Source: Dudresnaya verticillata (taxonomy: Eukaryota). From it: a stretch of DNA of 64,000 nucleotides. Location of the stretch: the NCBI GenBank assembly GCA_977862235.1, contig OZ374564.1:1364001-1428000 (forward strand). The letters run 5' to 3'. Position numbers and translations under genes: made by a program. A model generated the notes under the pieces. It saw only the letters and a list, made by a program, of their open reading frames with translations, was not told where the DNA came from and searched no databases. Every line of letters starts with the position of its first letter. The first letter of the stretch is position 1. Shown here piece by piece: positions 564 to 45,210 of the stretch.

Positions 564-2880
564 TAGGGGCGATATGAGCTTCGCTCTGAGCGTCTCATAT
601 GCCTCGAGCGCGTCGGCGCTTGGATTGTCGAAATCCACATCCGCGTCTTTGCGGGTCATGTTCGTCAGAAGACGTGAGATCTTCGCAAAGTTGCGCAAGA
701 AGCGGCGATAGACATAGCACGCTCCGAGGAACGACCTCACCTTCGTCAGGGAGGTCGGGAACTGCGCATCGCGGAAAGCGTCGCTGCTTGTCTGCGCCAT
801 GCGTAGCTTCCCCAGTTCGATGATGTGGCCTAGATAGCCAACGAGTGACTGAAAGAAGTGGCACTTCTTCAGTTTCAGGGATACTCCTCCCTTGTGCAAC
901 AGAGTCAGCACTTGGTATAGATGACCAACGTGCTCCGCGATCGACCGCTAGAAAATGATAACATCGTCTAGATATATCAGGAAACACTACCATCGGACGC
1001 CGCTGAGGATGATGTCCAGTGCGCGCTGGAAAGTCGCGGGGGCGTTCTTCAGCCCGAAAGGCATTCGCAAGTAGCGAAACGTCCCTAAGAATGACGTGAA
1101 TGTGTTGTTATCCCTGTCAGCCTCTGCGACAGGGATTTGCCAGTACCCCGTGTTGCAGTCCAACGTCGAGAAGACGGCTGCGTCGCCTAGACTGTCGATG
1201 CAGTCGTCCATCCTCGGTAGAGGGTACGCATCACTTAGCGTTTTCGTGTTGAGACGTCGATAGTCCACGCAAAACCTAAGTATGCCGTCCTTCTTGGGCA
1301 CCAGGACTACTGGACTACTGGTGATGCCCATTCCGAGGTGGCGGGCACGAAGCATGTTATCCACCTCGTCTTGCACCAGCTTGCGCATGGCAGGGCCCTG
1401 TCGGTAGGGCATTAACCGTATGGGGCGAGTGCCCCGTTCCACATCGATGTGGTGTCGGGTGACGGCAATAGTGCCCAGCCTCCCGTCCCACATGGACTGA
1501 TGCTTCCTGAGCATGGAGAGGACCTCCTTGCGGGTGACCTCGTCTTCGGTAGACGAGAGATCGACCTGCGCCTCCCAATCCTTGACGGACGGGTTGGCCT
1601 TCGCTGCGGCGGTAGCTGTGCCCTGCAGCGGCTGGGCGTCGGTGCCCTTCGCTGTCGACGGCGAGGTGGATGGTTCGACGGCATCCTGGTTGACCGGGGG
1701 CCTCTGCCACCGTGGTGGCAGGGTGGTGATATTCATCACCCGCCCGAACTCCTCCGCGACTTTGCGATCTGGAGGTATCAGCGCAACCGGGTTCCTAACC
1801 GCGTAGCCGACAATGGTACTCTTAGGCAGGGTCCGAGGCTTGTTGGTGAAGTTCCCGACGATGACCCCGAAAGGCCGCATCGACTCGACGTCGTGCACCC
1901 CGTTGGTAAGTCTCACGCCGTAGCGGAACTGCAACGAGGGTTTGGGTTGGGTGTGGATCAGCCCACTTGCTCCTGACGTCACGGAGACGAGCCTTTGGGA
2001 ATAGGCTGGGAGCACCATCTGCCTAGAGAGGCGGATGGTGTGGGTGTCGTGATCCCAGTCGAGGAGCTCCCTCTGGTGCCTAAACCCGTCGACGGGTTCT
2101 TCGGTTTCGATGCCGGCTTACTTTCCTCGGCAGGTCTACTGCGCTTGAGGAGGGGCACTGAGCCCCCGCGCCGGAGCGATAGGCGTTTAGATTCGACTTC
2201 GATGCCTCGCACGTGCGCGTTGAGGAACTCCGTTCCCACCAGGACGTCGACGGCCAAGGTGTCTGCCACTATGAATGGCACGCGGAACATCGTGTCGTCC
2301 AACCTCATCGAGAGGTGTGCCACCCCTGATAGGCTCAGTGGGGTCTTATCAGCCCCGGCGAGGCGAGGATTCGACTCCATCGCCGCCGCGTGCTAATCCC
2401 ATCCGGGTGGCAGTGCCCGCTTCGCGATGAGGATGTACCCGGAGCCGGTGTCTACCGCAATGGTGTGCGGTATCATTACCCCTGGGTCAGCGCCTAGCGA
2501 CCAAGACACGCGGTATATCTCCGAGGACAATAGTCACACATACCCGTCTGGGGTAGTGGCCGGCTCCGCGTCGACGCAGTGATCCATGGCACCTTCGCGT
2601 CGAGCAGAGGGAGCCTCAGGTTCCGTCGACGGACACCAACGCGCTCGGCGTCCTATCTGTCGCCTGCGTCGACGCCGCGGGGGCCAAGGTGGCCTGGAGC
2701 GCGTGGCTTTCGACGGCTCTTCGCGCAGGGGGCCCTCAGCGCTGCTTGGCGAGGGGGTCCTTCGTTGGTTGGGACTCGACGTCCCACCTGCCGTCGACGG
2801 CTTTGTGGAGGATGGTGGGTCTGGGGTAGAGAGAGACGGTGCGCGCGACCGCACGAACGGCGCCGCCTTTACTCTTTTCC
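564..2880 (-). pseudogene. Degenerate pol (protease, RT) of element B
   Basis: RT motifs [11 protein letters not shown] and MPFGLKNAPATFQR, then RSFLGAC. Several stops and frameshifts relative to A; cut off before RNase H. Confidence 0.9.
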
Positions 2881-4250
2881 GGTTCGATCCGGTCAAAAGT
2901 ATTTTCAGAATCCGAGCTATCTTCCTCGGATCCCATTGGCTGGCTAGATGCCTGGCCTGCGCCTCGCGTCGATCACGGCGGCGTGTCAAAAATAAACGGC
3001 GAGGCCGCGCGGCACTGCCGTGAGCTGGGAAATCGTCGTCTTCAGGCGAATAGTCGGATGACCCTCCGTCACTTGACGAGTCCAACGATAACGAGGACGA
3101 GTCTCCACGTCGATGATGGTTCTTCTTTCGTCCATGATGCAGCTTACGAAGGCGTCTCTTCCGATCCTTACGCCGTGGACGGTCTTCGCAAGAGCTCTCG
3201 TCACCAGACGGTGGGTGGGTATGCCACTTGGCGGTTTCAAGGAGCTTCAAGCGTGTCGCCAGTCGCTGAAAGCGTCCGCGAGAACTAAGTTCAGACCGCG
3301 AGTGTACCGTTACCGCTGTACCTTAGGCGGCGTTTTGGTTCGTCAATAGACAGTTGAGATCGGAGCGGAGTCCTTGTAGGGCGCCGTCCCGGTCTTCCTC
3401 CAACGTCTTGAGACGACTAAAAATTCTTCCGACACTGTCGTCCAGAATGTCGGCAAACCCAGCGAGCAAGGCATCGTCTTCCAGGACGCACACCTCTCGG
3501 ATCCGTTCGCGTGGTATCGTTAAGTTACTCACGCGGACGGCCGAGGGTGACGCCGTTGGCGGTTGTTGGCTTTCGGGGGTTGACCGCTTGGGCGTTCCCC
3601 CAGCGCTTCTGCTTGGAGAATTCGGCTTAGCCGGTAAACATCCGGCACTATCGTAGGGGGTGGGGCAACATGCCCCAGGTGTCAATCGGTCGTCACCGGC
3701 GTTGCGCTCCGCGGAGCGCCCCTGTTCGTCATTGACGGGGATGGTTGGTTGTTTGTCCGGAAGTTCCGGTTGTTCCTCTACGATGTCGGCTTGTCTTCCG
3801 CCTACGGCGCGCTGTTGCTCGGCTTGCACTGTGTCAGCCGAGTCAACGTACGAGCGGGAGGTGCAGAGGTTCGATCCTTCGGGTACTAAGGTGCGGACGA
3901 CAACAGGGATCCGCATCGGCGGAGGAGGTAACTCTCCCTCGTTGTGCGAGGCGTGGGAGCCTGCGTGACCGTGGCCTTAGAGAGGCGTCGGAAAGCCGGA
4001 CGCGATCTCCGGGCTCGCGAGGCGCCCCGACCGTGTTTCATCCGTGGGTGCGATCGCATCGACGCGGGAATACTCCCTGGCATCGATGACGGTCGTCTTA
4101 AACTTGGGCTTCTCACCGTCGGTGGTTTAGAGGCCGTAATACAATCGTAGATCTGTTTGAACATCGCGGACGATTAGCGACGACATCAGACGACGGGCTG
4201 TCGGACGTCGCACGACGGTAGAACTCGTTGTAGCGTAGAACCCTTCTCGA

Positions 4251-9400: not shown

Positions 9401-10102
9401 TACAAAAAGGGGTACCTGAATACTCAGGCAGATGCAATTTCGCGTGTAAAGATGAAGGGGAAACCGTCAAACCAATTGACGATGATACACCATGCTATCC
9501 TGAAAGTTACGTCAAAGACGGACACAACACGTCGGAAGATGATTTGTCAGACGCCGAAGGCGAGGTCGACTTCTCCGAACGAGAGTTCCAATCGTTCGAC
9601 CAAGTGTTGATCAACAACACGCCACAGGCGGATAAGGTACTCCCGCGTCAAGTGACGCACGAAGAGTTGGTACGTGCTCAAGGCAATGACCAATAGTGTT
9701 CAGAAATCCGGAAACGTCTGAACGGCGGGAGCTCCTTACCGTTCGCAACTGAGGAACAGGGCCTGTTGGTCCGAACAATGGAAGTCCACACACAAGTAGT
9801 CGTACCATCCGCGTTAAGCTCTCGCTTACTCCACCTCTGGCACCTCGCCAAGTTGGCGGGGCACCCAGGGGGGCGGAAGTTATATCATACGCTTCAAAGC
9901 GAATATTATTGGCCATCGATGCCAGTTGACTGTTACGCGACCGTCCGGAACTGCGTCACTTGCGCTAAGAACCGTATACTGTTGCGAAGCCTCTCGAGTT
10001 CGTGTCGATCGACATCCTGGGCGAGCTCATACGCACGAAGCGGGGAAATGGGTTCCTACCCGTCATCGTGGACCGCTTTTCGAAGCTGTTCCGGACGGTT
10101 CC
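6480..10102 (+). pseudogene. gag C-terminus and pol (PR, RT, RNase H, IN N-terminus) of element C
   Basis: ETGAGPNFI (degenerate protease), LDCNSGYWQV...MPFGLTNAPATFQR, ERNYS...TDHSSL, HLAKLAGHPG...CVTC. Many stops and frameshifts. Confidence 0.9.
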
Positions 10103-10937
10103 TGTGGCATAGACGTCAGGTCGAACTGACGTCTAGCTGCGCTGGTCGATCAGTCGCACCCAGACCCGTCGAAGGGTGGTAGCTGGTGGTAGAGCGGTGG
10201 TGTCGGCCGCGCGCGCCGTCGACGGTCGCGGATCAACGGCGTCGAAGCCTGAGCGCGCACGGGGCGTACTGTACGCGGGCGGCAGCGGCCGGATCCCTGC
10301 GTCCCCGTCGTGGGGCGGCACGAAGCCGACGGTAGGGAAAGGAAAAGGAAAGCCTAGATGGCTAGGGAAAGAGGGAATCCGTAGGGCGAAGGACTGGGAA
10401 AGAAACCCAAAGCAGAAAGGGCAAGCCTGGCGTAGGCTGGCTTGCCTGGTTTACTGAAGCCTAGAGGGGCGACTACTAGATATACTACAGGGCCTGCGGC
10501 GGCACCAACCCGGGAGGTGCGCCGGCGCGCCCCAACACGCGTCGACGCGTACGGGTAACGGTAACCCGGGGGCGCGCGTAGGCGGAACGGTCCACACGTA
10601 CTCAACGGCTCGACGCCGGAGTGCGCGCGCGCGTGTCACGCACTCAACGGCTCTGCGCCGGAGTGCGTGCGCACAGCGCGCGGGACAGCACGGCGTTCGA
10701 CCGCCGCTTACACTAGAGGGTGCTGTACACTTACAAAACAATAAACGTAGAAATTACATGGGCGTTTCAGTGTCACACGCGAACGCGTGTACACGTGGGC
10801 GCCACTGCGCACTCCCTTACAGTTCAGCGGGGCTTCGGCGCCACCGGCTGACAGCGTGCCCACAGCAGTGCACACGTGGCGCAGCTGGTCTTACAGCTGC
10901 GCGTGCGTGGCACAGCTGGTCTTACAGCTATGCCACA
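10103..10937 (-). repeat. 3' LTR of element A
   Basis: Direct repeat of 22645..23479 with 10-bp inverted termini; adjacent PPT. Confidence 0.97.
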
Positions 10938-10951
10938 CAATCCCCCCTCAA
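10938..10951 (-). promoter_or_regulatory. Polypurine tract of element A
   Basis: TTGAGGGGGGATTG immediately before the 3' LTR on the minus strand. Confidence 0.9.
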
Positions 10952-11269
10952 GCGCGAACGTCTCGGTCGCGACCGTTACAACGCGCACGCTGTAGGGTGG
11001 TCAAGACGGCGCCCGGGATTGGCCAGCGGGCTCCCGGGCGTCCGTCGGTGACGTGCGTCGATGCCACGTCGGGTGTGCCCGCGCTGAGCCGCGACGGGCT
11101 ATTTAGGGAGCCGCCTCTGCGGCTCCGAGGGGTGGGTGGTCTGGTCATCGCTCACCAAGACCACCAACACTCCCTCCCCCACGCGTACAGCTGCCTGTCG
11201 ACCAGTGCCATACGCTCGAAGCTTTCGACGCTCTCAACTTCCTCCCCCATCGCCAGCGTCGACGCGGCG

Positions 11270-14067
11270 ATGGAGTCACGCGAACCGATCGCGGACGGCG
11301 CCCCCGCCGAGGGGGCGCCGGTTACCAAGCCCACCTCCTCGACTGAGTCAGTCGTAGGGGGTGCGCCTGCCGAGCCGGTGCCAAGGGCGCCGGCTAGCGG
11401 GGAGGCGCGGCCTTCGACGGCCGCGCCAACCGCAGAGCGACCTTCGACGGTCGCTACAGAAGAGGCGCAACCTTCGACGGTTGCGCCAGAAGAAGCGCCC
11501 CCATCGACGGGTGCGCTGGGCAAGGCCGGGGCTGCTGCACCGGCTTCTTCCACCGGGGCGGGTGGCGTCGACGCCAACCCCACCCCAACGCCCGCCGCTG
11601 ACGTCTGGTCAGAGGCGGTGGCCCTTGCTGCGGCGCAGGGCAAGAGAGTGAAGGACCCGAGTGGGGCGGCCTCTGCCGCCCCGCGCCCAGTAGCGGCGGC
11701 TCGGGTCTTTCAGCCGACTGGCCCGCCTCGCGCGGGGCCTACGGCTCACAGCAATCAACCCGCTTCGACGCGAGGAGGGGCACCCGCGGAGCAGCCTTCG
11801 CGCTCCGCGGTGCCGATGGTGGCGAGGGTGCTCGACCTGAGTCGGTCGAGGTCACCCACGCCATCAGGGTCGAGGAAAGTCCCCGCAGCGGCGGCGCCCT
11901 TTGTGCCGCGCGATCCTAGTGGCTTGGGGCCGTCGACGGCCCCGACGCCGTCTCCCGTGGCCTCTGCCAACGCAGAGGGGGAGGCTGCGGGCGTGGGTGA
12001 GTCCACCGCTGCGCCCGTCGTGCCTCTTGTTGGGGTGTCGGTCTCAGTCGGACCGCCCCTCATGGGCCAGGCGCCCCCTGGACAGCACGCGCCCCCGACC
12101 GAGACGGTCTTCGCCTGGGGGCGCCGCGCCACCAGATCCCGCTGGATCAGTGGCGCGGGCTGCAGGAGCCTCGGGCAGACGTCCGGCGGCTCCTGAGGGT
12201 GGCCCACGCGAGCGTGGACGGAGGGGCGGCAGCCTATGCCGCTTTCCTCCCGGCTCACGCCATAGTCTGGCTCACGCCGTTGGGGTTACCCTGCGACGTT
12301 TCTTACGTCGCCTCCCTTGAGGAGCTTCGGCGGGTGGACAGGGCAGCCGATGCCCTCTTCCTGACACCCGCCGATGAGTGGGCCCCGCCCCTGCCTGCCA
12401 CCATCCCAGAGATGCGCACGGTGCCCGTCGAAGAGCCCGTGGACCTCGCGCACCGTCTGGCCGATGCCGACTCTGCGCGCCGCCTCTTTGGGGTGTGCTT
12501 CGGGGAGCGGGACTGGGACGTGTGCAAGGCCCCGGGCGAAGGACGCCCGTCAAAGGGGTGCAAGTTGCACCCGGCGCTCGACGCGGCCCGGTTCCCATCA
12601 GCGGAGTGGTACTCCCACCGGGAGATGCCATCGGGATTCACTATCCCGTGGATAACCGTAGACCGGTATTTCCACTACGCGACAGTCGGTCGCGTAGCTG
12701 CTCGTCGTGAGCTCCTGGCTAGGCGCTCAGATGAATACGCCTTCGAGGTGGGCCGCCGCTACTGCAGCGAGCTCCTCGCGAAGGGGACAGGCTGGGTCTT
12801 CGACGACCGCCTGATTAATTTCCTCGCGACCGGCTGGTCAAGCGAGAGGCCGTGTTTCCCAGACTTGCTCCGTCCTTCGGATGGCACGTCTTTTGGGTTC
12901 GGCGAGCTACTCGGCGTAGTCCGCCGAGTGGCTGCAGCAACCGAGAAGCACACGCGGAGGCGTCACTTCTCTTCACGCGTCGACGCGTTCGTGTGTGGCT
13001 TCTTGCCAGAGACAGGGGCCCTCTACAAGATCCAGCGCAATCGTGGCGCACGTGACCGGCGGGAGCACGTCGAGCGCTCCGGGTTCGCCTCGATGGCCGA
13101 AATGGCCCGCACTGAGCGCGCCGGTCGTCGCCGTCGTGGCCTGGGTGCTAACCCTGGGTCAGCCGCGGCCGTCATGGCGGCGGAGACCGAGTCATACATC
13201 CCGCCGCCCCCAAGGGCATCCGCGCGTCGTGCGCCAGCCGCCCCTGCGGCAGTCGGCGGACCGGCTGCTGCGGGGCCGTCGACGGCCCGCGCCCCTCCGG
13301 CCGGTGCCGTTGAGGTGTACCAGCCCCCGCCGGCCCCGTCTGGGTCGCCGGCGGTGGCTTATATCCCACCTCCTCCAGTGGTCGACCCACTGGACGAGGC
13401 GGTGAGTGCGGCAGACTGGGCCGATCCGACTGTACGCAGCGCGGCCTCCTTGGCGCGCGTCGGGCAAGGCGTGTCGACACGCACGCTCCTGCAGGCCCTG
13501 GCATCGAGCGCAGTGGCGCTGCAGGAGGACGTCAACGCCTCCAATGCCGTCGCGGTTCGATACCGCGACGAGCGGGACGGCTTTGCCGGCGAGGTGCAGA
13601 GGCTCCGCGGGGAAGTCCAGCGCATGTCTTATGCCCCGGCGCGCAAGAGGCTTCGCGAGGAGTACCAGCCGCCCCCGACGGGGTATGCGTCGATGCAGCC
13701 GATGCAGTCGTACGCTCCGGGCCCTTCTGGCCCGGCTGCCCCTTGGCAAGGCGCCGGGCAACTGATGTACCCAGGCGCTCAGGGCGGCGCAGGCGCGCCG
13801 CCCAGTGCTGCAGGCGTCGTGCCACAGCAAGCGGTTCTTCCGCAAGTGAGGGGCCCGTCGATGGGCCCTTACCGCCCTGCAGCTCCCATAGGTGGGGGCG
13901 CAGTGGCGTACGGAGGCTCGGCGCCTCCGCTTCCCGCCGGGGGTCTTCCACCACCGCCAGCGGCAACCACAACGGTGGTTGAGGGCTACGTGCCCGCGGC
14001 GTCGGAGGCAGCGGGCTCTGCGCCCGCCTTTCCCGGCGTGGGTCCTGGGGGCGAGGCCGCCCAGTAG
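11270..14067 (+). CDS. Antisense accessory protein of element A (~932 aa once a 1-nt frameshift at the 12117-12121 G-run is corrected), function unknown
   Basis: ATG at MESREPIADG and TATTTA at 11100. The copy at 41928 has G6 and reads through the junction. Ala/Pro-rich N-terminus, aromatic/Cys core, basic NLS-like motifs and a coiled-coil-like stretch. Confidence 0.75.
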
Positions 14068-15536
14068 TTATGCCGTAGTGGCTTATGCTGTAGAAGCATC
14101 CTAGTTCGAGGCGGTCGATCGCCTCGCTAGTTTTTAGGCCGCCGCTGCGTGTCTGGTTCATTAAAGGGCAAGGGGTGGGCGAAGACTTCGGTCCGCGACG
14201 ACGCGTTTTCAACAGCTGCGCCTTCGACCGCGCGGCTGCGTGCGAGCTATGCTCGCTGTAGCAGGTGGTGGGGCTTCGACGCCCCACCTCCTCATGGGTG
14301 CTATTGTGCCTGACCCGCGTCGAAGCGGGTGGCGGTCCGCAGTGCTGGCGTCGACACCACACAGGGGGCTGCCAGCGCGCGCAACGCCGCGTCGATGCGG
14401 AGCGTCAGCGCGGATCGGGTGCCCCTAGTGGCATCGCGGCTTTGCGCCGGAGGTGACCGCGTCGACGGGGTCCCCTCCGCCGGGAGTAGCCACGAGCGTG
14501 GCGGCGGCTTGTGCAGCCAACCCCACGCCAGGGGCGTCGATGCCCCTGGATGAGTGGGCAGAGGCCCGGGGGTGTCGGACCCCATTGGGCGTTCCCAATT
14601 ATTTGTGTTTTGGCTACAGTAGACACTGTAGTCTGAACACAAATCTGCGCCTCTGCGCTTGTGGGGCGCACGCGTCCCAAATATGGGTAAGCGCGCGCCT
14701 GTATTTGGCAGGGGCCGGTCGTCTGCCGCGGTGCCCTCGGCCTTCCCATCGTCGCGGTGGTTGTGCCGCTCACGCGTCGAAGCGCAGCGGTGCAACTCGA
14801 AGGACGCCGGCCTTCTTGGCTCTGGCGCCCCACATCGTCGTGGGGGCTGTGCGCGTTGGCACCCCGCCCGGCTAGGCGCCAGGGCGGTGGATGTTGGCCG
14901 ACGATTACGCGCGACGGCGGCGCGGCGTTGGTGAAGGGGTCGCCGACGCCTGTCCTCCGCCATCTGCGTGCAGCTGCCGCTTGACGTCGATGTCGGTGGC
15001 GCTTCGGCTTGGATGGCTCAGTGGCTTCTCCAGCCGGGTCGCGTCGAGCTTCGACGCTCGTTTCGCGTGCGCATATGGCGAAGGCCCTCCGTCCGAGTCG
15101 ACTCGGCGTGCGCGTGCCCTCGTTTTTGCCTGGGCTTCTGCCGCGTGGCGGTGGAGAAGGGGGCGTCGACGCCTGCCCTTCGCCACCTGTGCGCGGCTTC
15201 GCGGCGGCGTTGGTCAGACAACCCCCGACGGTGCGGGATGTCTTCCGCGTAGCGGAACTTCGCTACTACCGGGCGTCGAGCCGGTAGTGGCGAGGGGCGT
15301 CGTGCCCAGCGTCCCTGCGATGCGCAGTTCGCAGAGCACCCCTGCTCCTTGGCCTCTGCCATTGGCGCGGGGTGCTTTCTGCTTGGGCCGCCGGCATAGG
15401 CAGCCGCAATTCATGCCCTTACCGTGGGGCTTAGGCCCCACGTGTTCCCGTCGCTGGGAAGAAGGCAAAGGATGCCTGGATGAGGGTAATAACAGGCAAA
15501 GAATGCCTGAGGCAAAGAATGCCTGGGGCCCCCTCC

Positions 15537-18500
15537 TTAAGCACGAGGCGCCCCCGCCGAGTGGGCGAGTGGAGGGGATGGGGCGTCGAGCCCAGAGCCC
15601 TTCCGACGCTTCTGCGCGCGGAAGTATTGGCTCACCATCTCCTCCGGAAAATGGGATCGAGGTTCCCAAGTCGGCTTAGAGTAGCCGGTCCACTTGACCT
15701 GGAAGAGCATCGTGCCGTCTTCGGCCGTGCCATGGTCAAGTACCTTGTCCACCACGAACCGCGGGCCGTCGACGGCCTTGGACGCGAGATCGTCGGCGGT
15801 GGGCAAGTACGCGCTTCGACGCGCGGTGTCTTCCCGCAGAGGCGGGGGACAGAAGACGGCTCGGTCCGCTGCGATGCGTTCGACCAAGCCGTCTCTGTCG
15901 ATAAACAACGTGCGCTCGTCGTTGAGCAGCACGCGATAAGGCCCGATGGCCGGGCTCTGCATCTTCGGTGGTTTCATCACCCCGTCAGTTGCGTCGATGA
16001 AGACATAGTCTCCGGCCTTGATGCGGGAGTTGACCTTCCGGACCCGTCGGTCAAAGTCCTTTTTGTAACGCCTCTGCGTTTTGGCCAGGGCGGCAGAAGC
16101 CAGGCCCATAGCGGTGTCTAACCGCTTGAGGAAGTCCGTTCGGACATCCTCACTAGGTTTCGGGCGGTCGACCGCCGAGTGAAACTTAGTAAATTCCGGC
16201 GGAGGCCGTGACAGCACTAAGCGGAATGGAGTCGTCCGCGTCGAGCGGTGCACGTGACAGTTGTAGGAATACGTCAACGCAGAGGCGTATCGATCCCAAT
16301 CGTTTTGGTGATCGTTGACGTAGTTCCTCAACATGGCCATGACGGTCCGGTTGTAGCGTTCAGCCTGCCCATTCGACTGGGGGTGATACGTGGAGGTGAA
16401 CCCGTTGTTCAAACCCAAATACCGGCAGACGGCTTGGAAGAACTTCGATGTGAACTGCTTTCCGTTATCGGAAAGCAAGGACCTAGGCGGCCCGTAGTGG
16501 AAGACCCACTGTTCACAGAAGACAACTGCGACGTTGTAAGCCGTAATGGTGCGCAGAGGCGCGACTTGCGTCAGCTTAGTAAAGCGGTCCGTCATGACGA
16601 CGAGGAATTTGCGACCACACTTGGTCTTGGGCAGGGGGCCCAGTATGTCGATAGCGACGGATTCCAGCGGCCTGGTGGCCGGGAACAGCATCAGTCTATG
16701 AAGGTGTCTGCGCAGTCGAATTCGGTTACGGCCACAGTGCCTGCAGTTTCTTACTGTCATGGCGATGCTGGCCGCCATATGCGGCCAGTAGTAGGTCTCA
16801 CGCAGGGAATAGAACATCTTGTTCTGCCCTGGGTGGCCCGCGAGGAGGGAGTGGTGCGCGAGCGTGAGCAGCCGAGGCTGTAACGACTCGGGCACCACTA
16901 TCTGGTCTAGCGAAGCTATGACCGGATGATGGCGGCATACAAGCCCATCCCCGTCCTCGCAAAAATGGCTATCCCGTCGACGGGACTGCCTGGCCAGTAC
17001 GGTCTGGCAGAAGGAGTCGTGCCGCTGCGCGTTCACAAATTCCTCGACGGAAATAGGTGAAGGGAGCTTCACTGGCTCCATGGAGGTCAAGTCCGATGGC
17101 TCGTCTCCCGCATCGACGCGGAGGAGATCGAAGAGGTCGACTTCGTCGGTGTCGCCCCACGCCGCTTCGTCGGCCAAGTCCGGGGGTTCGTCTGCCGCGA
17201 CAGTCTTGGGCGCGGTGCCGGTGATGCTTCCCCGGACTGGCTTCGGGACGGGCTGCGCTGGGGCCGAACGCGTAGATGCGTTGGCCGGCGAGCGGGTGGT
17301 TACCAAGACGGGAGCCGCAGGTTCTGTACCCGAACGTGCCACCGGCGTCTCAGCCGAGGACTCCCCTTTCTGGCGGTCGATCGCCGGGGGGTCAAAGGTA
17401 GGGACGTCGTCGTCAAACTCCTCCTGTTTCCGCTGGGGCCGAACCAAGCGGGACAGGGCATCCGGGACTTGGTGTACCCGCCCGGGGCGGTACTCGATCT
17501 GGAAGTCGAATTCCGCGAGCCGCAGGCGCTACCGGGTCAGTCGACCCGAAGAGTCGGTCAGCGACATCAGCCATCGAAGCGCATCGTGATCGGTTCGAAC
17601 CGTGAATCGCGTGCCTTCGATGTATGGCCGCAGGGTTGTGATCGACCACACCACTGCGAAGCACTCACGCTCAGTGGCGGAGTAATTGCGCTCCGCCGAG
17701 TTGAGCGAGTAGGACCAGTACCCGACTGGATGTAGCTGGCCGTCCTCCTGCTCCTGCAGTAGGGCGCATCCGAGCTGATAAGCCGATGCGTCCGTATCGA
17801 AGACGTAGGGTCTACCCGTCTTGGGGAGCCGTAGGATAGGGGGCGATATGAGCTTCGCTCGGAGCGTCTCATATGCCTCGAGCGCGTCGGCGCTTGGATT
17901 GTCGAAATCCACATCCGCGTCTTTGCGGGTCATGTTCGTCAGAGGACGCGAGAGCTTCGCGAAGTTGCGCACGAAGCGGCGATAGACATTGCACGCGCCG
18001 AGGAACGACCTCACCTTAGTCAGGGAGGTCGGGAACTGCGCATGGCGGAAAGCGTCGCTGCTCGTCTGCGCCATGCGTAGCTTCCCCGGTTCGATGACGT
18101 GGCCTAGATAGCCAACGCGTGACTGAAAGAAGTGGCACTTCTTCAGTTTCAGGGATACTCCTCCCTTGTGCAACAGAGTCAGCACTTGGTATAGATGACC
18201 AACGTGCTCCGCGATCGACCGCGAGAAAATGATCACATCGTCTAGATAGATCAGGCAGCACTGCCATCTGACTCCGCTGAGGATGATGTCCAGTGCGCGC
18301 TGGAAAGTCGCGGGGGCGTTCTTCAGCCCGAAGGGCATTCGCAAGTAGCGAAACGTCCCTAAGAACGAAGTGAACGTGGTCTTATCCCTGTCAGCCTCTG
18401 CGATAGGGATTTGCCAGTACCCCGCGTTGCAGTCCAACGTCGGGAAGACGGCTGCGTCGCCTAGACTGTCGATGCAGTCGTACATCCTCGGTAGAGGGTA

Positions 18501-20160
18501 CGCATCACTTAGTGTTTTCGTGTTGAGACGTCGATAGTCCACGCAAAACCTAAGTGTGCCGTCCTTCTTGGGCGCCAGGACGACTGGCGATGCCCATTCC
18601 GAGGTGGCGGGTTCGATAACCCCTGCACGAAGCATGTTATCCACCTCGTCCTGCACCAGCTTGCTCATGGCAGGGCCCTGTCGGTAGGGCATGGAGCGGA
18701 TGGGGCGAGTGCCCCGTTCCACGTCTATTTGGTGTCGGGTGGCGGCAATAGTGCCCAGTCTCCCGTCCCACATGGACTGATGCTTCCTGAGCATGGAGAG
18801 GACCTCCGTGCGGGTCACCTCGTCTTCGATAGACGAGAGATCGACCTGCGCCTCCCAGCCCTCGACGGACGGGTTGGCCTTCGCTGCGGCGGTAGCTGCA
18901 CCCTGCAGCGGCTGGGCGTCGGTGCCCTTCGCCGTCGACGGCGAGGTGGATGGTTCCACGGCACCCTGATTGACCGGGGGCCTCTGCCCCCGTGGTGGTA
19001 GGGTGGTGATGTTCATCACCCGCTCAAACTCCTCCGCGACTTTGCGGTCTGGAGTTATCAGTGCCACCGGGTTCCTAACCTCGTAGCCGACAACGGTACG
19101 CTTAGGCAGGGACCGAGGCTTGTCGGTGAAGTTCCCGACGATGACCCCGAAGCGTGGCATCGACTCGACGTCATGCACCCCGTTGGTACGTCTCACGCCG
19201 TGGCGGAACTGCAACGAGGGTTTGGGGTCGGTGTGGATCAGCCCACTTGCTCCTGAAGTCACGGAGACGAGCCTTTGTGAATAGGCTGGGAGCACCATCT
19301 GCCTAGAGAGGCGGATGGTGTGGGTGTCGTGATCCCAGTCGAGGAGCTCCCTCTGATGCTTTCTCGACAAACCCGTCGACGGGTTCTTGGGCTTCGGTGC
19401 CGGCTTGCGGTCCTCGGCAGGTCTACTGCGCTTAAGGAGGGGCACCGAGCCCCCACGTCGGAGCGATAGGCGTTTCGACTCGACGTCGATGCCTCGCACG
19501 TGCGCATTGAGGAACTGCGTTCCCACCAGGACGTCGACGGCCAAGGTGTCTGCCACTATGAATGGCACGCGGAACGTCGTGTTCCCCAGCCTCATCGAGA
19601 GGTGCGCCACCCCTGATAGGCTCAGTGGGGTCTTATCAGCCCCGGCGAGGCGAGGAGTCGACTCCATCGCCGCCGCGTGCGGATCCCATCCGGGCGGCAG
19701 CGCCCGCTTCGCGATGAGGTTGTACCCGGAACCGGTGTCCACCGCAATGGTGTGGGGTATCATTACCCCTGGGTCAGCGCCTAGCGACCCAGACACGCGG
19801 TATATCTCCGAGGACAAGAGGCACACATACCCGTCGGGGGTAGTGGCCGGCTCCGTGTCGACGCAGTGAGCCATGGCACCTTCGCGTCGAGCAGAGGGAG
19901 CCTCAGGTTCCGTCGACGGACACCTACGCGCTCGGCGTCCTATCTGTCGCCTGCGTCGACGCCGCGGGGGCCAAGGTGGCCTGGAGCGCGTGGCTTTCGA
20001 CGGCTCTTCGCGCAGGGGGCCCTCAGCGCTGCTTGGCGAGGGGGTCCTTCGTTGGTTGGGACTCGACGTCCTGCCTGCCGTCGACGGCTTGGCGGAGGAT
20101 GGTGGGTCTGGGGTAGAGAGAGACGGTGCGCGCGACCGCACGAACGGCGCCGCCTTTACT
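15537..20160 (-). CDS. pol: Pol polyprotein of element A (PR-RT-RNase H-IN-chromodomain) with a single in-frame TAG at 17529-17531
   Basis: AVDTGSG, YLDD, FDTDASA, HHCC zinc finger, DILGP...SDNG...QAER, and chromodomain FVVDKVLDH...KWTGY...TWEP (15621-15758). ORFs 17529..20141 and 15537..17447 are in the same frame. Confidence 0.93.
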
Positions 20161-22576
20161 CTTTTTCCGGTTCGACCCGGTCAAAATTATTTTCGGAATC
20201 CGAGCTATCTTCCTCGGATCCCATTGGCTGGCCAGGGGCCGGGCCGGCTCCTCGCGTCGATCGCGGCGGCGAATCAAAAAGGAGCGGGGGCTGCTCGACC
20301 TGCCCCCGGGCGGACTCGCCCTTGCTCTGCGCATCGAGCGCTCGCGGGAGCCACTCGTCGGCTGCTAGCCCGGTGTGCTCCTGCACGGTCATCACTGCCC
20401 GAAGCAGTTCGCGCTGCGGGTCGGGCCTCGAGGGCGTCGACTCCCGAGGTTGGCGACCGGCTTGGTCGTCAAACCCGACCCGCTTGTCGCGAGTGAGGAA
20501 CCGCGGGACGTCTGCCCTTCGGTATTCGCGGCGCGGATTTCGACGATCCCCGCGGTACTGTCGCGGCTCCCCGCGATACCTTTGCGCGTCGAAGCGCTGC
20601 GGGGGACCCCTCGCGTTGAAACGTCGGGCCCCACCCCGCTGCGCGTCGAAGCGTCTTGCGGGGTAACTTGCCTTGGCGCCTGCCGGCATGCGCTCGTCGA
20701 TGAGCTGCTGCAAGTTGTTGCGCGCGTGCGGCTGCGTCTCCAGTCTATGGTTGCAGTTCGCATACGCGCAGTACAACTGCTGTTCCTTAGTCAGGAATGG
20801 GCACGAGTACATGATGTGCCCAAGTTCTCGGCAGAACCAGCAGATGTACCACCCCTGTCGATCAGGGGTGACAGCGCGGGCCATGGCCTCTTGCGCCGGT
20901 GTGAACGGAGGGATCCTCCTCGGCAGGACGGCATCGATGCGTCCTGATATGTCGAGGGTCTCCTCGGCTTGCGCCGCCCCGGCTGTCGACAGCGCGGGCA
21001 CGACCATGACGGGTTCGAAACCATCGTCATCGGGCGCCACCAACATCGTGCCGTCGAAGGCCGCTTCCCTATCGGGTGTGTGTGGCGCCTCGATAAGCAG
21101 CGTGCGGCCGCTTGGCGAACTGCTTCCCCTACCGCGCCCCGAAACGATGGCCGGCGTCGACGCCTTGGCCATACGGGCGCGGTAGGTTGTGCCCTCACTG
21201 TGGGCGATCCAACGAACGGTACTGAAGTTGGTCTGCTCGACCATCGGCATCTGCCTTACCTTCTCCGCTACCGCGGGTCGGGTGGTCGGAAGCAGACCAC
21301 GCAGGAACTGGTGCGTCAGGTTCTCGTCGGAGTAGACGCCGGCACAGTCATCTGCGTAGCCCTCTAGACGAGAGGCGAACTCGAGTTCTGACTCGGCGTC
21401 CCGCTGCCGGGTGGTGGTCAGTCGGTCGTGCGCGTCGGCGATCACGTCGTCGGTGACGAACCTCTCGACGAGGGTATTGACCAACGAGGCCCAGCACGGG
21501 GGGGTGCCGCGACTAGTCGTCCGGACCCCCGAGAAAAGGTGACTCGAATACACCTGGGATGCCGTTCCGTCTAGGAACCAGGACACCACTCGCGCCGCTG
21601 CGCCTTCCGACAGGCCGACGCCGTTGAAGGCTTGGCGTAGCTGTCTAAGCACGCCAAGCAAGCGGATGGGCTCCTTGCCGTCGTAGCGATCTAGCCGCGG
21701 CATGAGAGCCTTCATCCGGCTCACAATCTTGGCGGTGTTGCCATTGCAGACTTGCTGCTGATTGTCCCGCTGCCTTATGTCGTCTAGACGATAGGAGCGG
21801 TAGTCGATCGCCTTCGCGAATTCGGGGACCAAGGTGCTCAGCGGCTCGACGCCCGGCATCAATGGCCCCCAGTGCCAGTAGGCCGACACGGGACCTTCGT
21901 TTGGTGAGGGGCTAGACGCCCCTCCAACTCCGCGCCCGTCGAGGACGCGTTGTAGTAGCTTGGGGTCGACCCCGTAGAAGGGGTCGTCATCTCTTGTAGG
22001 GCGAGGGGACCCTTGCCCACTCCTAGGCGGAGAGGCCGGTGGAGAAAAAGGGTTTCGCTGAGCACGACGATCAGCGAGGAGGGCTTTGGCCAGTTCGCGA
22101 ACCGGATCCGCTTGAGACGGCGATCGCGGAGGACGGCTCCGCACCGGCGACGGGCTAGGCGCCCGTCGGTCATACCGCGCCGGTGCGTGCTCAATCAACT
22201 CAACGCGTTGGCGTAGCTCGTCGAGGAGCCCTTGAGTTCGGGTTAATCCTTCCTCGACGGAGGCGAGAGTTCCGCGTCGAAGCGACTCCAGGTCACGTTG
22301 ACCTTGTGCCCGCGCGTCTGCGACTGAGGCCATGAAGGTGTCGTACACTTCCGAAAGTGAGTCCATCGTCTCCTCGTAGAGTAGCTGGAGGTCGGTCGCA
22401 GAGACCGGTGTCCCTCCTAGGGCCTTGGCTATAGCCGCCCTGCGCTCGATGCGCGGTTCCTCTAGGGGAGCTCCTGAGACGCCGACGTTACTCAGCAAGG
22501 AAGTGCGACGACCGCTAACTTCACCTGCCGCGGCGTCTGCCGGACCGGCAGCGGCCGAAGTAGGTAGCGGCGGCAT
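20156..22576 (-). CDS. gag: Gag polyprotein of element A (806 aa)
   Basis: Open ORF just after the PBS. Capsid-like Q...ESELEFASRL motif and zinc knuckle CWFCRELGHIMYSC. Confidence 0.92.
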   Translation of the reverse strand: MPPLPTSAAAGPADAAAGEVSGRRTSLLSNVGVSGAPLEEPRIERRAAIAKALGGTPVSATDLQLLYEETMDSLSEVYDTFMASVADARAQGQRDLESLRRGTLASVEEGLTRTQGLLDELRQRVELIEHAPARYDRRAPSPSPVRSRPPRSPSQADPVRELAKALLADRRAQRNPFSPPASPPRSGQGSPRPTRDDDPFYGVDPKLLQRVLDGRGVGGASSPSPNEGPVSAYWHWGPLMPGVEPLSTLVPEFAKAIDYRSYRLDDIRQRDNQQQVCNGNTAKIVSRMKALMPRLDRYDGKEPIRLLGVLRQLRQAFNGVGLSEGAAARVVSWFLDGTASQVYSSHLFSGVRTTSRGTPPCWASLVNTLVERFVTDDVIADAHDRLTTTRQRDAESELEFASRLEGYADDCAGVYSDENLTHQFLRGLLPTTRPAVAEKVRQMPMVEQTNFSTVRWIAHSEGTTYRARMAKASTPAIVSGRGRGSSSPSGRTLLIEAPHTPDREAAFDGTMLVAPDDDGFEPVMVVPALSTAGAAQAEETLDISGRIDAVLPRRIPPFTPAQEAMARAVTPDRQGWYICWFCRELGHIMYSCPFLTKEQQLYCAYANCNHRLETQPHARNNLQQLIDERMPAGAKASYPARRFDAQRGGARRFNARGPPQRFDAQRYRGEPRQYRGDRRNPRREYRRADVPRFLTRDKRVGFDDQAGRQPRESTPSRPDPQRELLRAVMTVQEHTGLAADEWLPRALDAQSKGESARGQVEQPPLLFDSPPRSTRGAGPAPGQPMGSEEDSSDSENNFDRVEPEKE

Positions 22577-22632
22577 TCTTGGCCTCGACCGCGTCGACGC
22601 GAGCGGTGATAGGGTCTTCTGCGACTTCTAGG

Positions 22633-22643
22633 TCGGGAGACCA
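22633..22643 (-). promoter_or_regulatory. Primer-binding site of element A (tRNA-Tyr candidate)
   Basis: TGGTCTCCCGA, 1 nt from the 5' LTR. Confidence 0.8.
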
Positions 22644-22644
22644 G

Positions 22645-23479
22645 TGTGGCATAGACGTCAGGTCGAACTGACGTCTAGCTGCGCTGGTCGATCAGTCGCA
22701 CCCAGACCCGTCGAAGGGTGGTAGCTGGTGGTAGAGCGGTGGTGTCGGCCGCGCGCGCCGTCGACGGTCGCGGATCAACGGCGTCGAAGCCTGAGCGCGC
22801 ACGGGGCGTACTGTACGCGGGCGGCAGCGGCCGGATCCCTGCGTCCCCGTCGTGGGGCGGCACGAAGCCGACGGTAGGGAAAGGAAAAGGAAAGCCTAGA
22901 TGGCTAGGGAAAGAGGGAATCCGTAGGGCGAAGGACTGGGAAAGAAACCCAAAGCAGAAAGGGCAAGCCTGGCGTAGGCTGGCTTGCCTGGTTTACTGAA
23001 GCCTAGAGGGGCGACTACTAGATATACTACAGGGCCTGCGGCGGCACCAACCCGGGAGGTGCGCCGGCGCGCCCCAACACGCGTCGACGCGTACGGGTAA
23101 CGGTAACCCGGGGGCGCGCGTAGGCGGAACGGTCCACACGTACTCAACGGCTCGACGCCGGAGTGCGCGCGCGCGTGTCACGCACTCAACGGCTCTGCGC
23201 CGGAGTGCGTGCGCACAGCGCGCGGGACAGCAGGGCGTTCGACCGCCGCTTACACTAGAGGGTGCTGTACACTTACAAAACAATAAACGTAGAAATTACA
23301 TGGGAGTTTCAGTGTCACACGCGAACGCGTGCACACGTGGGCGCCACTGCGCACTCCCTTACAGTTCAGCGGGGCTTCGGCGCCACCGGCTGACAGCGTG
23401 CGCACAGCAGTGCACACGTGGCGCAGCTGGTCTCACAGCTGCGCGTGCGTGGCACAGCTGGTCTTACAGCTATGCCACA
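22645..23479 (-). repeat. 5' LTR of element A
   Basis: Direct repeat of 10103..10937. Confidence 0.97.
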
Positions 23480-23484
23480 GTTCC

Positions 23485-40026: not shown

Positions 40027-42256
40027 GCCGCGGCTGACCCAGGGTTAGCACCCACGCCACGACGGCGACGTCCGGCGCGCTCAGCGCGGGCCATGTCGGC
40101 CATCGAGGCGAACCCAGAGCGCTCGACGCGCTCCCGCCGGTCGCGCGTGCCCCGATTGCGCTGGATCTTATAGAGGGCCCCTGTCTCTGGCAAGAAGCCA
40201 CACACGAACGCGTCGACGCGTGAAGAGAAGTGACGCCTCCGCGTGTGTTTCTCGGTTGCCGCTGCCACTCGGCGGACTACGCCGAGCAGCTCGCCGAACC
40301 CAAACGACTTGCCATCCGAAGGACGGAGCAAGTCCGGGAAACACGGCCTCTCGCTTGACCAGCCGGTCGCGAGGAAATTAATCAGGCGGTCGTCGAAGAC
40401 CCAGCCTGTCCCCTTCGCGAGGAGCTCGCTGCAGTAGCGGCGGCCCACCTCGAAGGCGTATTCATCTGAGCGCCTAGCCAGGAGCTCACGACGAGCAGCT
40501 ACGCGACCGACTGTCGCGTAGTGGAAACCGGTCTACGGTTATCCACGGGATAGTGAATCCCGATGGCGTCTCCCGGTGGGAGTACTACTCCGCTGATGGG
40601 AACCAGGCCGCGTCGAGCGCCGGATGCAACTTGCACCCCTTTGACGGACGTCCTTCGCCCGGGGCCTTGCACACGTCCCAGTCCCGCTCCCCGAAGCACA
40701 CCCCAAAGAGGCGGCGCGCAGAGTCGGCATCGGCCAGACGGTGCGCGAGATCCACGGGCTCGTCGACGGGCACCGTGCGCATCTCTGGGATGGTGGCAGG
40801 CAGGGGCGGGGCCCACTCATCGGCGGGTGTCAGGAAGAGGGCATCGGCTGCCCTGTCCACCCGCCGAAGCTCCTCAAGGGAGGCGACGTAAGAAACGTCG
40901 CAGGGTAACCCCAACGGCGTGAGCCAGACTATGGCGTCCGCCGGGAGGAAAGCGGCATAGGCTGCCGCCCCTCCGTCCACGCTCGCGTGGGCCACCCTCA
41001 GGAGCCGCCGGACGTCTGCCCGAGGCTCCTGCAGCCCGCGCCACTGATCCAGCGGGATCTGGTGGCGCGGCGCCCCCCAGGCGAAGACCGTCTCGGTCGG
41101 GGGCGCGTGCTGTCCAGGGGGCGCCTGGCCCATGAGGGGCGGTCCGACTGAGACCGACACCCCAACAAGAGGCACGACGGGCGCAGCGGTGGACTCACCC
41201 ACGCCCGCGGCCTCCCCCTCTGCGTTGGCAGAGGCCACTGGAGACGGCGTCGGGGCCGTCGACGGCCCCAAGCCACCAGAATCGCGCGGCACAAAGGGTG
41301 CCGCCGCTGCGGGGACTTTCCCCGACCCTGATGGCGTGGGTGACCTCGACCGACTCAGGTCGAGCACCTTCGCCACCATCGGCACCGCGGAGCGCGAAGG
41401 CTGCTCCGCGGGTGCCCCTCCTCGCGTCGACGCGGTTTGATTGCTGTGAGCCGTAGGCTCTGCGCGAGGCGGGCCAGTCGGGTGAAAGACCCGAGCCGCC
41501 GCTACTGGGCGCGGGGCGGCAGAGGCCGCCCCACTCGGGTCCCTCACTCTCTTGCCCTGCGCCGCAGCAAGGGCCACCGCCTCTGACCAGACGTCAGCGG
41601 CGGGCGGTGGGGTGGAGTTGGCGTCGACGCCACCCGCCCCGGCGGAAGAAGCCGGCGCAGGAGCAGCCCCGGCCTTGCCCAGCGCACCCGTCGATGGGGG
41701 CGCTTCTTCTGGCGCAACCGTCGAAGGTTGCGCCTCTTCTGTAGTGACCGTCGAAGGTCGCTCTGCAGTTGGCGCGGCCGTCGAAGGCCGCGCCTCCCCG
41801 CCAGCCGGCGCCCTTGGCACCGGCTCGGCAGGCGCACCCCCTACGACTGACTCAGTCGAGGAGGTGGGCTTGGTAACCGGCGCCCCCTCGGCGGGGGCGC
41901 CGTCCGCGATCGGTTCGCGTGACTCCATCGCCGCGTCGACGCTGGCGATGGGGGAGGAAGTTGAGAGCGTCGAAAGCTTGGAGCGTATGGCACTGGTCGA
42001 CAGGCAGCTGTACGCGTGGGGGAGGGAGTGTTGGTGGTCGTGGTGAGCGATGACCAGACCACCCACCCCTCGGAGCCGCAGAGGCGGCTCCCTAAATAGC
42101 CCGTCGCGGCTCAGCGCGGGCACACCCGACGTGGCATCGACGCCCGTCACCGACGGACGCCCGGGAGCCCGCTGGCCAATCCCGGGCGCCGTCTTGGCCA
42201 CCCCACAGCGTGCGCGTTGTAACGGTCGCGACCGAGGCGTTCGCGCTTGAGGGGGG
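40027..42256 (+). mobile_element. Family-A 3' internal fragment (antisense gene copy with ATG at 41928 on minus; PPT at ~42247-42256)
   Basis: Inverted near-identical copy of ~10942..13170. Stop at 40585 and an indel near 40527. Confidence 0.93.
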
Positions 42257-43867
42257 TGTAGTGCCAGGGGGTTCCCCCTTTTTTCGCTTTCAAGCGGGTT
42301 GATATTCCGCGTCTACCGACGGGCGACCGCCAACGGCGCGCTCAACCCACCTGTGGTGCAATGGCCGTACGCGGCTGTAGAACACCCCCGAGAGTTCGGG
42401 CTCGGGAGGGTAGCTGCGCGATCACGCGAGAGTATCGCGTAAACGCGGTGGTAGAGCTAGGAAGCAACCCGGCGGCGGACTGTAAACACCGTCGGGTTGT
42501 CTGTGGGCGTGGACGCCAAAAGTAGGTGACCACCAGTGAAGGGGCGTAGACGCCAAAGGTGAAGGGAGGATGAAGGGATAAGGGGAGGAGCGGAAGGGGT
42601 AGAAACGGGGAAATGAAGGGAGCCGAGCGCGGCGCGGGGAGGAGCAGCGGGGAGGTGCGCGTAGGGAGCGTCGGGCTGGCGGTTGGCACGGGTTGCGCTA
42701 GCCTTAGCCCGCGGTGACGCCGAGCAACGAGCTCGTGGGTCAGGCGCGGGGGAACTCGGCTGCAGAGCCCATGCTTGGGGTTGGTTTACTGAGGGTGGCC
42801 GGCGCTACTCGCCTTAAGTCCCTGGCCACGGCGGTAGGATAGTTAGGGCTACCATACACTACCTACAATAAACTAACACTGACACCTCAGTGTACCTAGT
42901 GTACACTGAGTGTCGACTGCTGTAAAGGGAAATGTAATTAATAGGAACGCGCGCGGGCAAGCCCAGAATGGGCTGCGCGCGTCCGAAGTGGGCCGGCGTG
43001 GCGACGTGTGCTATCTAACGAGCACACGTGTGTACGCCTTCGCGAGTAACGCGCTGATCACGTGGTAACACGAAAAGGGGCAATATCGTTGCACTACACC
43101 ACCCGCGGGGTGGTGTGGCCAAGACAGCGCCCGGGATTGCCCAGCGGGCTCCCGGGCGTCCGCCGGTGACAGGCGTCGATGCCCCGTCGGTTGTGCCCGC
43201 GCTGAGCCGCGACGGGCTATTTAGGGAGCCGCCTTTGCGGCTCCGGAGAGCGAGAGCGGTCCGGCCATCGCTCACCACGACCGCCAACTCCCCGCGTGCT
43301 GTCCCTTGTCGACAAGCACTGCACGCTCCAAGCTTCGACTCTTTCAACCTCCTCCTTCCTTCCCCTATCGCCAGCGTCGACGCGGCGATGGAGTCACGCG
43401 AGCCTATCGCGGGCGGCGCCCCTACGGAAGGGGCGCCGGTCTCCAACCCCGCCACGTCGACCGAGTCAGTCGCGGTGGGTGGACCTGCCGAGCCGGTACC
43501 AAAGGCGGCGGCGTGCGGGAAGGCGCGGCCTTCGACGGCCGCGCCAGCCGCGGAGCAACCTTCGACGGTCGCTGCGGCAGAGGCGCTACCTTCAACGGTT
43601 GCGCCAGAAGAAGCGGCGCCAACGACTGGTGCGCTAGGCGATGACGGGCACGCTCCTGCGTCGGCTTCTGCTTCCGGGTCGGGTGGTGTCGATGCCAACC
43701 CCACCCCAAAGCCCGCCGCTGACGTCTGGTCAGAGGCGGTGGCCCTCACCGCGGCGCAGGGCAAGAAAGTGAAGGACCCGAGTGGGGCGGCCTCTGCCGC
43801 CCCGCGCCCAGTAGCGGCGGCTCGGGTCTTTCAGCCGACTGGCCCGCCTCGCGCAGGGCCTACAGCT
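42257..43867 (-). mobile_element. Element D fragment: distinct LTR (42257..43098) plus a divergent antisense-gene 5' part (ATG 43388, +)
   Basis: TGTAGTGC...GCACTACA termini. MESREPIAGG... paralogue with TATTTA at 43218. Confidence 0.8.
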
Positions 43868-45210
43868 TGTGGCATAGACGTCAGGTCGAACTGACGTCTA
43901 GCTGCGCTGGTCTCGTAGTCGCACCCAGACCCGTCGAAGGGTGGTAGCGGTGGTGGTAGAGCGGTGGTGTCGGCCGCGCGCGCCGTCGACGGTCGCGGAT
44001 CAACGGCGTCGAAGCCTGAGCGCGCACGGGGCGTACCGTACGCGGGCGGCAGCGGCCGGATCCCTGCGTCCCCGTCGTGGGGCGGCACGAAGCCGCCGGT
44101 GGGGAAAGGAAAAGGAAAGCCTAGGCGGCTAGGGAAAGAGGGAAGCCGTAGGGCGAAGGACTGGGAAAGAAACCCAAAGCAGAAAGGGGCAAGCCTGGCG
44201 TAGGTTGGCTTGCCTGGATTACTGAAGCCCAGAGGGGCGACTACTATATATACTACAGGGCCTGCGGCGGCACCAACCCGGGAGGTGCGCCGGCGCACCC
44301 CAACAAGCGTCGACGCGTACGGGTAACGGCAACCCGGGGGCGCGCGTGGGCCAAACGGTCCACACGTACTCAACGGCTCGACGCCGGAGTGCGCGCGCGC
44401 GTGTCACGCACTCAACGGCTCTGCGCCGGAGTGCATGCGCACAGTGCGCGGGACAGCAGGGCGTTCGACTGCCGCTTACACTAGACGGTGCTGCACACTA
44501 CAAAACAATGAACGTAGAAATTACATGGGAGTTTCAGTGTCACACGCGTACGCATGCACACACGGGCGCCACTGCGCACTTCCTTACAGTTTAGCGGGGC
44601 TTCGGCGCCACCGGCTGACAGCGTGCGCACAGCAGTGCACACGTGGCGCAACTGGTCTTACAGCTGCGCGTGCGTGGCACAGCTGGTCTTACAGCTATGC
44701 CACACAACCCCCCCTCAAGCGCGAACGCCTCGGTCGCGACCGTTACGACGCTCACGCTGTGGGGTGGCCAAGACGGCGCCCGGGATTGGCCAGCGGGCCC
44801 CCGGGTGTCCGTCGGTGACGGGCGTCGATGCCACGTCGGGTGTGCCCGTGCTGAGCCGCGACGGACTGTTTAGGGAGCCGCCTCTGCGGCTCCGAGGGGG
44901 GGTAGTCTAGTCATCGCTCACCATGACCACCAACACTCCCTCCCCCACGCGTACAGCTGCCTGTCGACCAGTGCCATACGCTCCAAGCTTTCGACGCTCT
45001 CAACTTCCTCCCCCATCGCCAGCGTCGACGCGGCGATGGAGTCACGCGAACCGATCGCGGACGGCGCCCCCGCCGAGGGGGCGCCGGTTACCAAGCCCAC
45101 CTCCTCGACTGAGTCAGTCGTAGGGGGTGCGCCTGCCGAGCCGGTGCCAAGGGCGCCGGCTGGCGGGGAGGCGCGGCCTTCGACGGCCGCGCCAACTGCA
45201 GAGCGACCTT
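43868..45210 (-). mobile_element. Family-A fragment: 3' LTR 43868..44704, PPT, and start of the antisense gene (ATG 45036)
   Basis: High identity to 10103..~11444; truncated at 45210. Confidence 0.93.

Follow-up and report, generated by a model that had tools for sequence, protein, structure and literature searches.

The Ty3/gypsy retrotransposon examined here carries a real additional gene on the strand opposite to gag and pol. The frame of this gene is broken in the focal copy, and comparison of the copies reveals purifying selection. An antisense accessory gene of a chromovirus had been proposed in a preliminary description of this locus, and the proposal is borne out by purifying selection in the antisense frame and by antisense genes located in the same slot of related elements. 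The antisense gene family is new, while the arrangement as such, an extra antisense ORF 3' of pol, is already known.

Structure of the focal element

The window, i.e. the whole 64-kb stretch of DNA that was analysed, contains an element with LTR ends, a target duplication, a polypurine tract (PPT), gag followed by RT-RNase H-integrase, and a C-terminal chromodomain, which together identify a Ty3/gypsy chromovirus:

10103-23479 (-): focal element, LTR retrotransposon of 13.4 kb, chromodomain Ty3/gypsy (chromovirus)
10098..10102 and 23480-23484: left and right copies of the 5-bp target-site duplication
10103..10937 (-): 3' LTR, 835 nt, TG...CA ends
10941..10949 (-): PPT, adjoining the 3' LTR
15537..19874 (-): pol with protease-like start, RT, RNase H, integrase and chromodomain
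20156..22576 (-): gag, 806 aa, Pfam Retrotrans_gag, in a frame separate from pol
22645..23479 (-): 5' LTR; next on the minus strand comes a sequence that begins with TGG and resembles a primer-binding site

The Pfam matches of pol comprise RVT_1, RT_RNaseH, rve, Integrase_H2C2 and Chromo, the last one with an E-value of 1e-5 and 25.8 bits (cut-off 25.1), and the pol frame is interrupted by an in-frame stop near 17,530. Five differences over 835 nt (K=0.006) separate the two LTRs, and their near-identity together with the 5-bp target duplication indicates that the insertion is young. It is situated inside the integrase gene of an older plus-strand chromovirus, the integrase match of which is found in two pieces at 9640-10106 and 23483-24232. 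Among the 120 integrase homologues listed with an organism, the only named relatives are Chondrus crispus proteins (42-58% identity). Similarly, an integrase tree of 57 rows selected by hand from loci and matches placed the focal element in an 11-row clade (support 97/99) with two Chondrus crispus proteins, and this clade is sister to the clade in which the antisense gene family described below was seen. From these relationships, a red seaweed is very probably the host.

Several other features were recorded in the window. Another piece of pol from the focal family is present at 566-2999 (-) (93% identical, dN/dS 0.30), and 28935-29505 holds an LTR fragment of focal type that has diverged (73%), is oriented opposite to the older element and has TATTTA at 29328 (-). 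The region 34165-38981 (+) represents a Ty1/copia element of lower GC with 168-nt direct repeats (97%) and gag-integrase and RT in two frames. Possible host genes are an intronless 460-aa WD40-repeat ORF (48946-50328, -) and a C-terminal EMC1 fragment (57403-57900, -). Finally, 60778-63708 (-), listed together with 53805-55340 (+), may be a Plavaka-type PAG2, a gene described with PF01555 in red-algal DNA transposons (10.1101/2025.02.11.637652).

The antisense gene and its broken frame

As initially reported, the antisense gene is located on the plus strand, antisense to gag-pol, between the end of the integrase (15537) and the PPT/3' LTR. The single ORF of ~932 aa assumed before is absent, however, because 11270-14067 comprises 2,798 nt, which is no multiple of three. 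The ATG at 11270 starts an ORF of 308 aa that stops at 12196, and the remainder of the gene is in another frame, open from 12001 to 14067, in which the first ATG at 12412 would give 551 aa. The frame break near 12,117 falls into a short homopolymer run, hence it may be an assembly error. The gene can be divided as follows:

11106..11269 (+): putative 5' leader, pyrimidine-rich, in which indels are tolerated
11270..12117 (+): N-part, ~282 aa, Ala/Pro/Ser/Thr-rich, predicted disordered; the frame continues to the stop at 12196
12118..13140 (+): core, in the different frame, predicted folded and mostly helical
12496-12570 (+): Cys/His cluster within the core
12592-12830 (+): aromatic motif within the core, resembling the family core
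13123-13140 (+): basic patch of the core, ending in GRRRRG
13141..14067 (+): C-part, beginning with a Pro/Ala linker; stop at 14065-14067
~13480-13635 (+): coiled-coil-like stretch of the C-part
13636-13656 (+): PARKRLR, NLS-like
tail of the C-part (+): low-complexity Ala/Gly/Pro/Gln/Tyr

The motifs named in the preliminary description were all recovered. The N-terminus, which had been called disordered, is rich in Ala and Pro with only 0-7% order-promoting residues per 40 aa; the Cys residues encoded at 12496, 12523 and 12559 form a C-x8-C-x11-C-x2-H pattern; the basic motifs GRRRRG and PARKRLR are encoded at 13123 and 13636, respectively; and the C-terminal tail is compositionally biased towards Ala, Gly and Pro. 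The Arg-rich patch at 12950-13140 has a net charge of +10. An AF2 model of the core reached pLDDT values of 61-77 over residues ~190-240 only. The labels NLS, AGO-hook and TATA refer throughout to the usual consensus patterns.

Purifying selection between copies

The recurrence of the start context at 41928, 43388 and 45036 was verified; the TATTTA box is preserved at 41928 and 43388 but changed at 45036. Besides the focal gene the window includes three further copies:

40027..42256 (-): copy 2, PPT, leader and antisense gene, 97% identical
43115..43867 (+): copy 3, leader and first 159 codons, 85% identical, interrupted by an LTR insertion
43868..45210 (+): copy 4, truncated, from a sister element; comprises 3' LTR, PPT, leader and codons 1-58

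No intact copy of the antisense gene exists within the 64-kb window. Copy 2 has its own damage: 40585-40587 is a stop codon, a gap of 2 nt lies near 40527, and the copy is truncated at 40027. It reads in frame across the focal break point, therefore both parts are halves of a single gene. Undamaged sister copies at other genomic sites very probably make the protein of ~930 aa. Directly after the PPT of copy 2, at 42257-43098, we observed an LTR-like segment with inverted ends of the TGTAGTG/CACTACA type, which is unrelated to the focal LTR. An LTR swap or a nested insertion is possible for this foreign LTR, beside which the internal sequence of copy 2 is 97% identical to the focal element.

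Four copies are thus present in the window, one of which besides the focal gene covers the core. Between the focal gene and copy 2, the core (348 codons) shows 16 synonymous and 11 non-synonymous changes, corresponding to a dN/dS of 0.23 (p=2e-4), which is not neutral and close to the 0.30 of pol compared with its own copy, keeping in mind that protein-guided alignments bias dN/dS towards low values. Third codon positions received 18 of the 27 changes. The other two plus-strand frames of the core gave dN/dS values of 1.70 and 2.41; the minus-strand frame sharing the wobble sites gave 0.27, yet it contains 8 stops compared to 0 in the gene frame. The N-part appears constrained in comparison to copy 3 (0.45, p=0.004), whereas no significant constraint was found versus copy 2 (0.76, p=0.36). 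The comparison covers the N-part and the core, the C-part being without second copy in the window. Moreover, the focal leader differs from that of copy 3 by 7 indels, 5 of them not multiples of three, while the coding region differs by a single indel of 3 nt.

These data bear on the view that the region is just a chance open frame in DNA of 70% GC, or matters only as antisense RNA. Such a view could refer to the high GC content, to the broken frames of both long copies and to the lack of a close homologue. However, it is at odds with the dN/dS of the core and the excess of changes at third positions, and with copy 3, in which the coding indel keeps the frame and the leader indels do not. Furthermore, a stop-free frame of at least 688 codons was obtained in 0 of 500 base shuffles (median 256), and the GC content by codon position in the core (0.70/0.55/0.77) resembles that of gag (0.69/0.54/0.71). 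We regard it as very improbable and already largely refuted. An envelope-like or membrane movement protein, in favour of which the slot between pol and the 3' LTR could be named, is even harder to believe, since the gene has antisense orientation and a segment of transmembrane strength is missing (maximum KD19 of 1.39-1.55; the focal protein, at most 1.55, has no hydrophobic segment), a value of 1.9 being reached by 2 of the 38 long members of the family introduced below.

A candidate promoter of its own

The TATTTA box was confirmed at 11100..11105 (+), 170 nt before the ATG at 11270. Shuffling the upstream 328 nt 20,000 times produced a hexamer of the type TAT[AT][AT]A in 385 cases, making the box unusual for the GC content. 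Copy 3 agrees with the focal sequence at every position of the 30-nt block surrounding TATTTA, while the next 120 nt match at only 20-22 of 30 positions. TATTTAG is also found upstream of the antisense ORFs of two other loci, L031 (-215) and L087 (-117 from the first Met). When 22 loci were inspected, TATTTA was present upstream of the antisense gene in 5 on the gene strand and in 1 on the opposite strand; the five include the focal copy and another locus, whose box at 29328 is probably the LTR box of the LTR-like fragment. Judged from sequence, TATTTA is a candidate TATA-like box of a probable promoter belonging to the antisense gene itself, beside the 3' LTR.

Antisense genes at the same position in related elements

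Long antisense frames were sought downstream of the integrase in 80 loci with an integrase alignment, the best 80 of 555. The frames sort into subfamilies linked by BLAST (E ~1e-5 to 1e-9) and by profiles, and leave-one-subfamily-out profiles recovered every omitted subfamily with E-values from 1e-4 to 7e-19. The position was counted in those 37 related loci whose sequence extends 2.5 kb or more past the integrase, which are not independent and represent about six to seven element families: 30 harbour an antisense family match at the same position (25 of 32 once the five seed loci are set aside), two of these matches being shorter than 90 nt, 1 has a short sense match, and 6 are without match. 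The members share an aromatic core of ~150 aa, which has neither Pfam nor PDB match, and no Pfam family recurs among 90 members. Thirteen family pairs gave dN/dS values of 0.24-0.73, with p<0.01 in 11. Each of the subfamilies A, B and C corresponds to one supported integrase clade, indicating co-inheritance with fast divergence.

The older chromovirus in the window also contributes a member, which is decayed but clearly belongs to the family and is closest to locus L001:

27187..29187 (-): decayed antisense gene of the older chromovirus

Using a profile without window sequences it was matched with E-values of 5.9e-15 (27752-27982) and 1.8e-10 (27919-28287), and by tblastn with the L001 ORF at 3.6e-7. 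Searching 1.84 billion protein representatives with a profile in which the focal sequence is one of 22 rows returned 524 clusters at E<=1e-3. Thirty members were looked up; 3 are hypothetical proteins of Pyropia vietnamensis, one of which belongs to a cluster of 74 members, and all others are environmental sequences. At the loci L087 and L123 the element is almost complete, and its gag, pol and antisense frames are open, the antisense frames having 1,007 and 853 codons, respectively. Within the limits of the literature covered, no description of this antisense family was found. Two side observations concern the collected loci. Retrotransposon contigs of algal type, some of them intact, have been binned into bacterial MAGs (L081-L088, L120-L123; G001-G003), and a 638-aa frame past a gypsy integrase (L017:11765-13678, -) resembles, by eye, a PIF1-type helicase (Helitron-like).

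Relation of the focal protein to the family

The sequence data slightly favour the focal core as a remote homologue of the family core. All weak matches fall on core residues ~155-237 (window ~12590-12830) and on the same family segment, where the focal motif shares the pattern aromatic-Pro-Trp-aromatic, Glu-x-Pro-x-Gly, Glu-aromatic, Trp-x-hydrophobic and matches 20 of 42 conserved family columns. The scores varied with the profile. The first pooled profile hit the focal protein at E=0.012 (best reversed decoy 0.34), a balanced profile gave 14.6 bits, a score that 0 of 3,000 shuffles reached, and the six leave-one-out variants of this profile yielded 6.4-16.1 bits (0-6 of 3,000). A 64-row profile reached 2.5 bits (49 of 3,000 shuffles as high), and the deepest one with 137 rows 8.7 bits (3 of 3,000; E=0.42), with a reversed decoy scoring better; one further profile search gave no focal match at E<2, and seven subfamily profiles gave nothing significant, at best 0.9 bits. 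The hhalign score of 24.7 exceeded all 150 shuffles (maximum 21.3) and all 64 natural decoys (maximum 17.5), the associated probabilities being 6-26%.

These inconsistent and weak profile scores could also mean that the focal gene was captured independently, from a host gene, a virus or another transposon, and arrived in the same slot in a sister clade, which we consider a serious possibility of somewhat less than even weight. In this regard, the focal integrase belongs to the 11-row clade of Chondrus elements that is sister to the clade of the family, sequence searches gave no close homologue of the focal core, the family shows no conservation of the focal Cys/His cluster (Cys reaches 25% in its best column), and extra ORFs of plant elements form hundreds of unrelated groups (PMC6317226). 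The focal-clade loci closest to the focal element end ~0.6-1.6 kb past the integrase. Against an independent origin speak the convergence of all weak matches on one segment, the hhalign score above shuffles and natural decoys, the matching conserved columns, and a common length and layout: a disordered start, core, coiled coil and basic C-terminal motifs are shared by the focal protein with L087, L121 and L122, in which coiled coil and basic tail are clear, though not in every subfamily. As a further candidate, the TRP28 (PF04195) antisense gene of Retand/Tat elements was considered, which gave no match in the focal segments (E<=1) or in 90 family members (E<=10); a remote structural homology to TRP28 may exist.

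Possible function

By analogy, the antisense gene might encode a nuclear accessory factor that acts in trans against host chromatin silencing, so that its own element family stays transcribed, and is expressed from its own TATA-like promoter; we propose this whole chain tentatively and give it just short of an even chance. Since the gene runs from the 3' LTR side in the direction of pol, its expression would not depend on the genomic RNA, and a separate antisense unit would permit the protein to be made while the LTR is silent. The helical aromatic core could bind to DNA of the element, to chromatin or to a silencing factor of the host, oligomerisation may be mediated by the coiled coil, the basic motifs would direct nuclear import, and the disordered arms might recruit host factors. 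Regarded separately, a nuclear localisation of the focal protein is rather probable, and a self-specific transcriptional or anti-silencing role, as opposed to another role in the life cycle, is conceivable by analogy at somewhat less than even chance. That every element clade has a subfamily of its own, which diverges fast, agrees with a self-specific factor. Points counting against a nuclear or anti-silencing role are the near-neutral family core (median net charge +1, atypical for a DNA binder) and the weak excess of NLS-like motifs (8 of 38 long family tails compared to 4.3 expected).

Ranked second, and in our opinion unlikely, is a post-transcriptional accessory protein that acts at the RNA or particle level, i.e. 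Rev-like RNA export, translation or packaging, import of a particle or integration complex, or suppression of RNA silencing. The evidence from selection and position serves it equally well, the Arg-rich patch with its net charge of +10 and the low-complexity tail would suit RNA binding, and such roles were proposed by analogy with retroviruses in a review (PMC7264820). Against RNA-silencing suppression, WG/GW Argonaute-hook motifs are not enriched, neither in the 38 long family members (77 versus 82.3 expected) nor in the focal C-part (2 versus 1.9 expected); moreover, the separate antisense unit would be easier explained by a need for the protein during LTR silence, as assumed for the nuclear factor.

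Boty of Botrytis cinerea is a chromovirus with chromodomain. Its brtn gene, likewise antisense and additional, follows pol on the 3' side in a gypsy element from outside the plants (PMC7264820; PMC8365987), but it is fungal and can be likened to the focal gene by position and orientation. With a long antisense ORF between pol and the 3' LTR (split in the focal copy) and a core about as conserved as pol (dN/dS 0.23 versus 0.30; four copies, one covering the core), the focal gene corresponds to an aORF-3R. Antisense extra genes between pol and the 3' LTR that are conserved like core genes are described, as aORF-3R, for Grande (GENE23), RIRE2 and Retand (PMC7264820, PMC11963269), and GENE23 is nuclear with its own upstream antisense promoter (PMC7264820). 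However, those are non-chromovirus elements of flowering plants, whereas the focal element is red-algal in type and bears a chromodomain. A plant survey found extra ORFs mainly in non-chromovirus and SIRE lineages, and the terms 'Rhodophyta' or 'red alga' do not occur in it (PMC6317226). A functional analogy, in which the focal gene would correspond to a fast-diverging, family-specific accessory protein with coiled coil, can be drawn to VANC of VANDAL elements, described as a self-specific anti-silencing protein with coiled coil (PMC13547354; 10.1101/2025.02.11.637652). VANC differs in belonging to Mutator-like DNA transposons of eudicots and in removing DNA methylation, and has no sequence match to the focal protein. 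Ancient accessory genes on red-algal transposons are also known from PAG1-3 of Plavaka (10.1101/2025.02.11.637652), but Plavaka are DNA transposons, and PAG2 and PAG3 have enzyme domains while the focal family is without a recognisable one.

Significance

Antisense extra genes of LTR retrotransposons are a standing puzzle, and neither a 2020 nor a 2025 review assigns them a function (PMC7264820, PMC11963269). Most cases known so far come from flowering-plant elements that are not chromoviruses; here, one conserved family takes the same slot across a radiation of red-algal chromoviruses, hence the arrangement is old or has been repeatedly favoured. PRC2 represses transposons in a red alga (10.1101/2022.10.24.513474). 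It may even be speculated, at a low probability, that red-algal chromoviruses with Pyropia-type and Chondrus-type elements share one ancient, undescribed antisense family with a new aromatic helical domain, of which the focal gene would be the most divergent member and whose proteins, as anti-silencing factors specific to their LTR retrotransposon family, would counteract Polycomb-type (H3K27me3) repression. Although the focal copy is a broken specimen, hundreds of diverse sequences are now usable for structure work, and multicopy 'hypothetical proteins' annotated in seaweed genomes need to be flagged as transposon-borne. Finally, the family offers a direct test in a lineage with Polycomb-repressed transposons.
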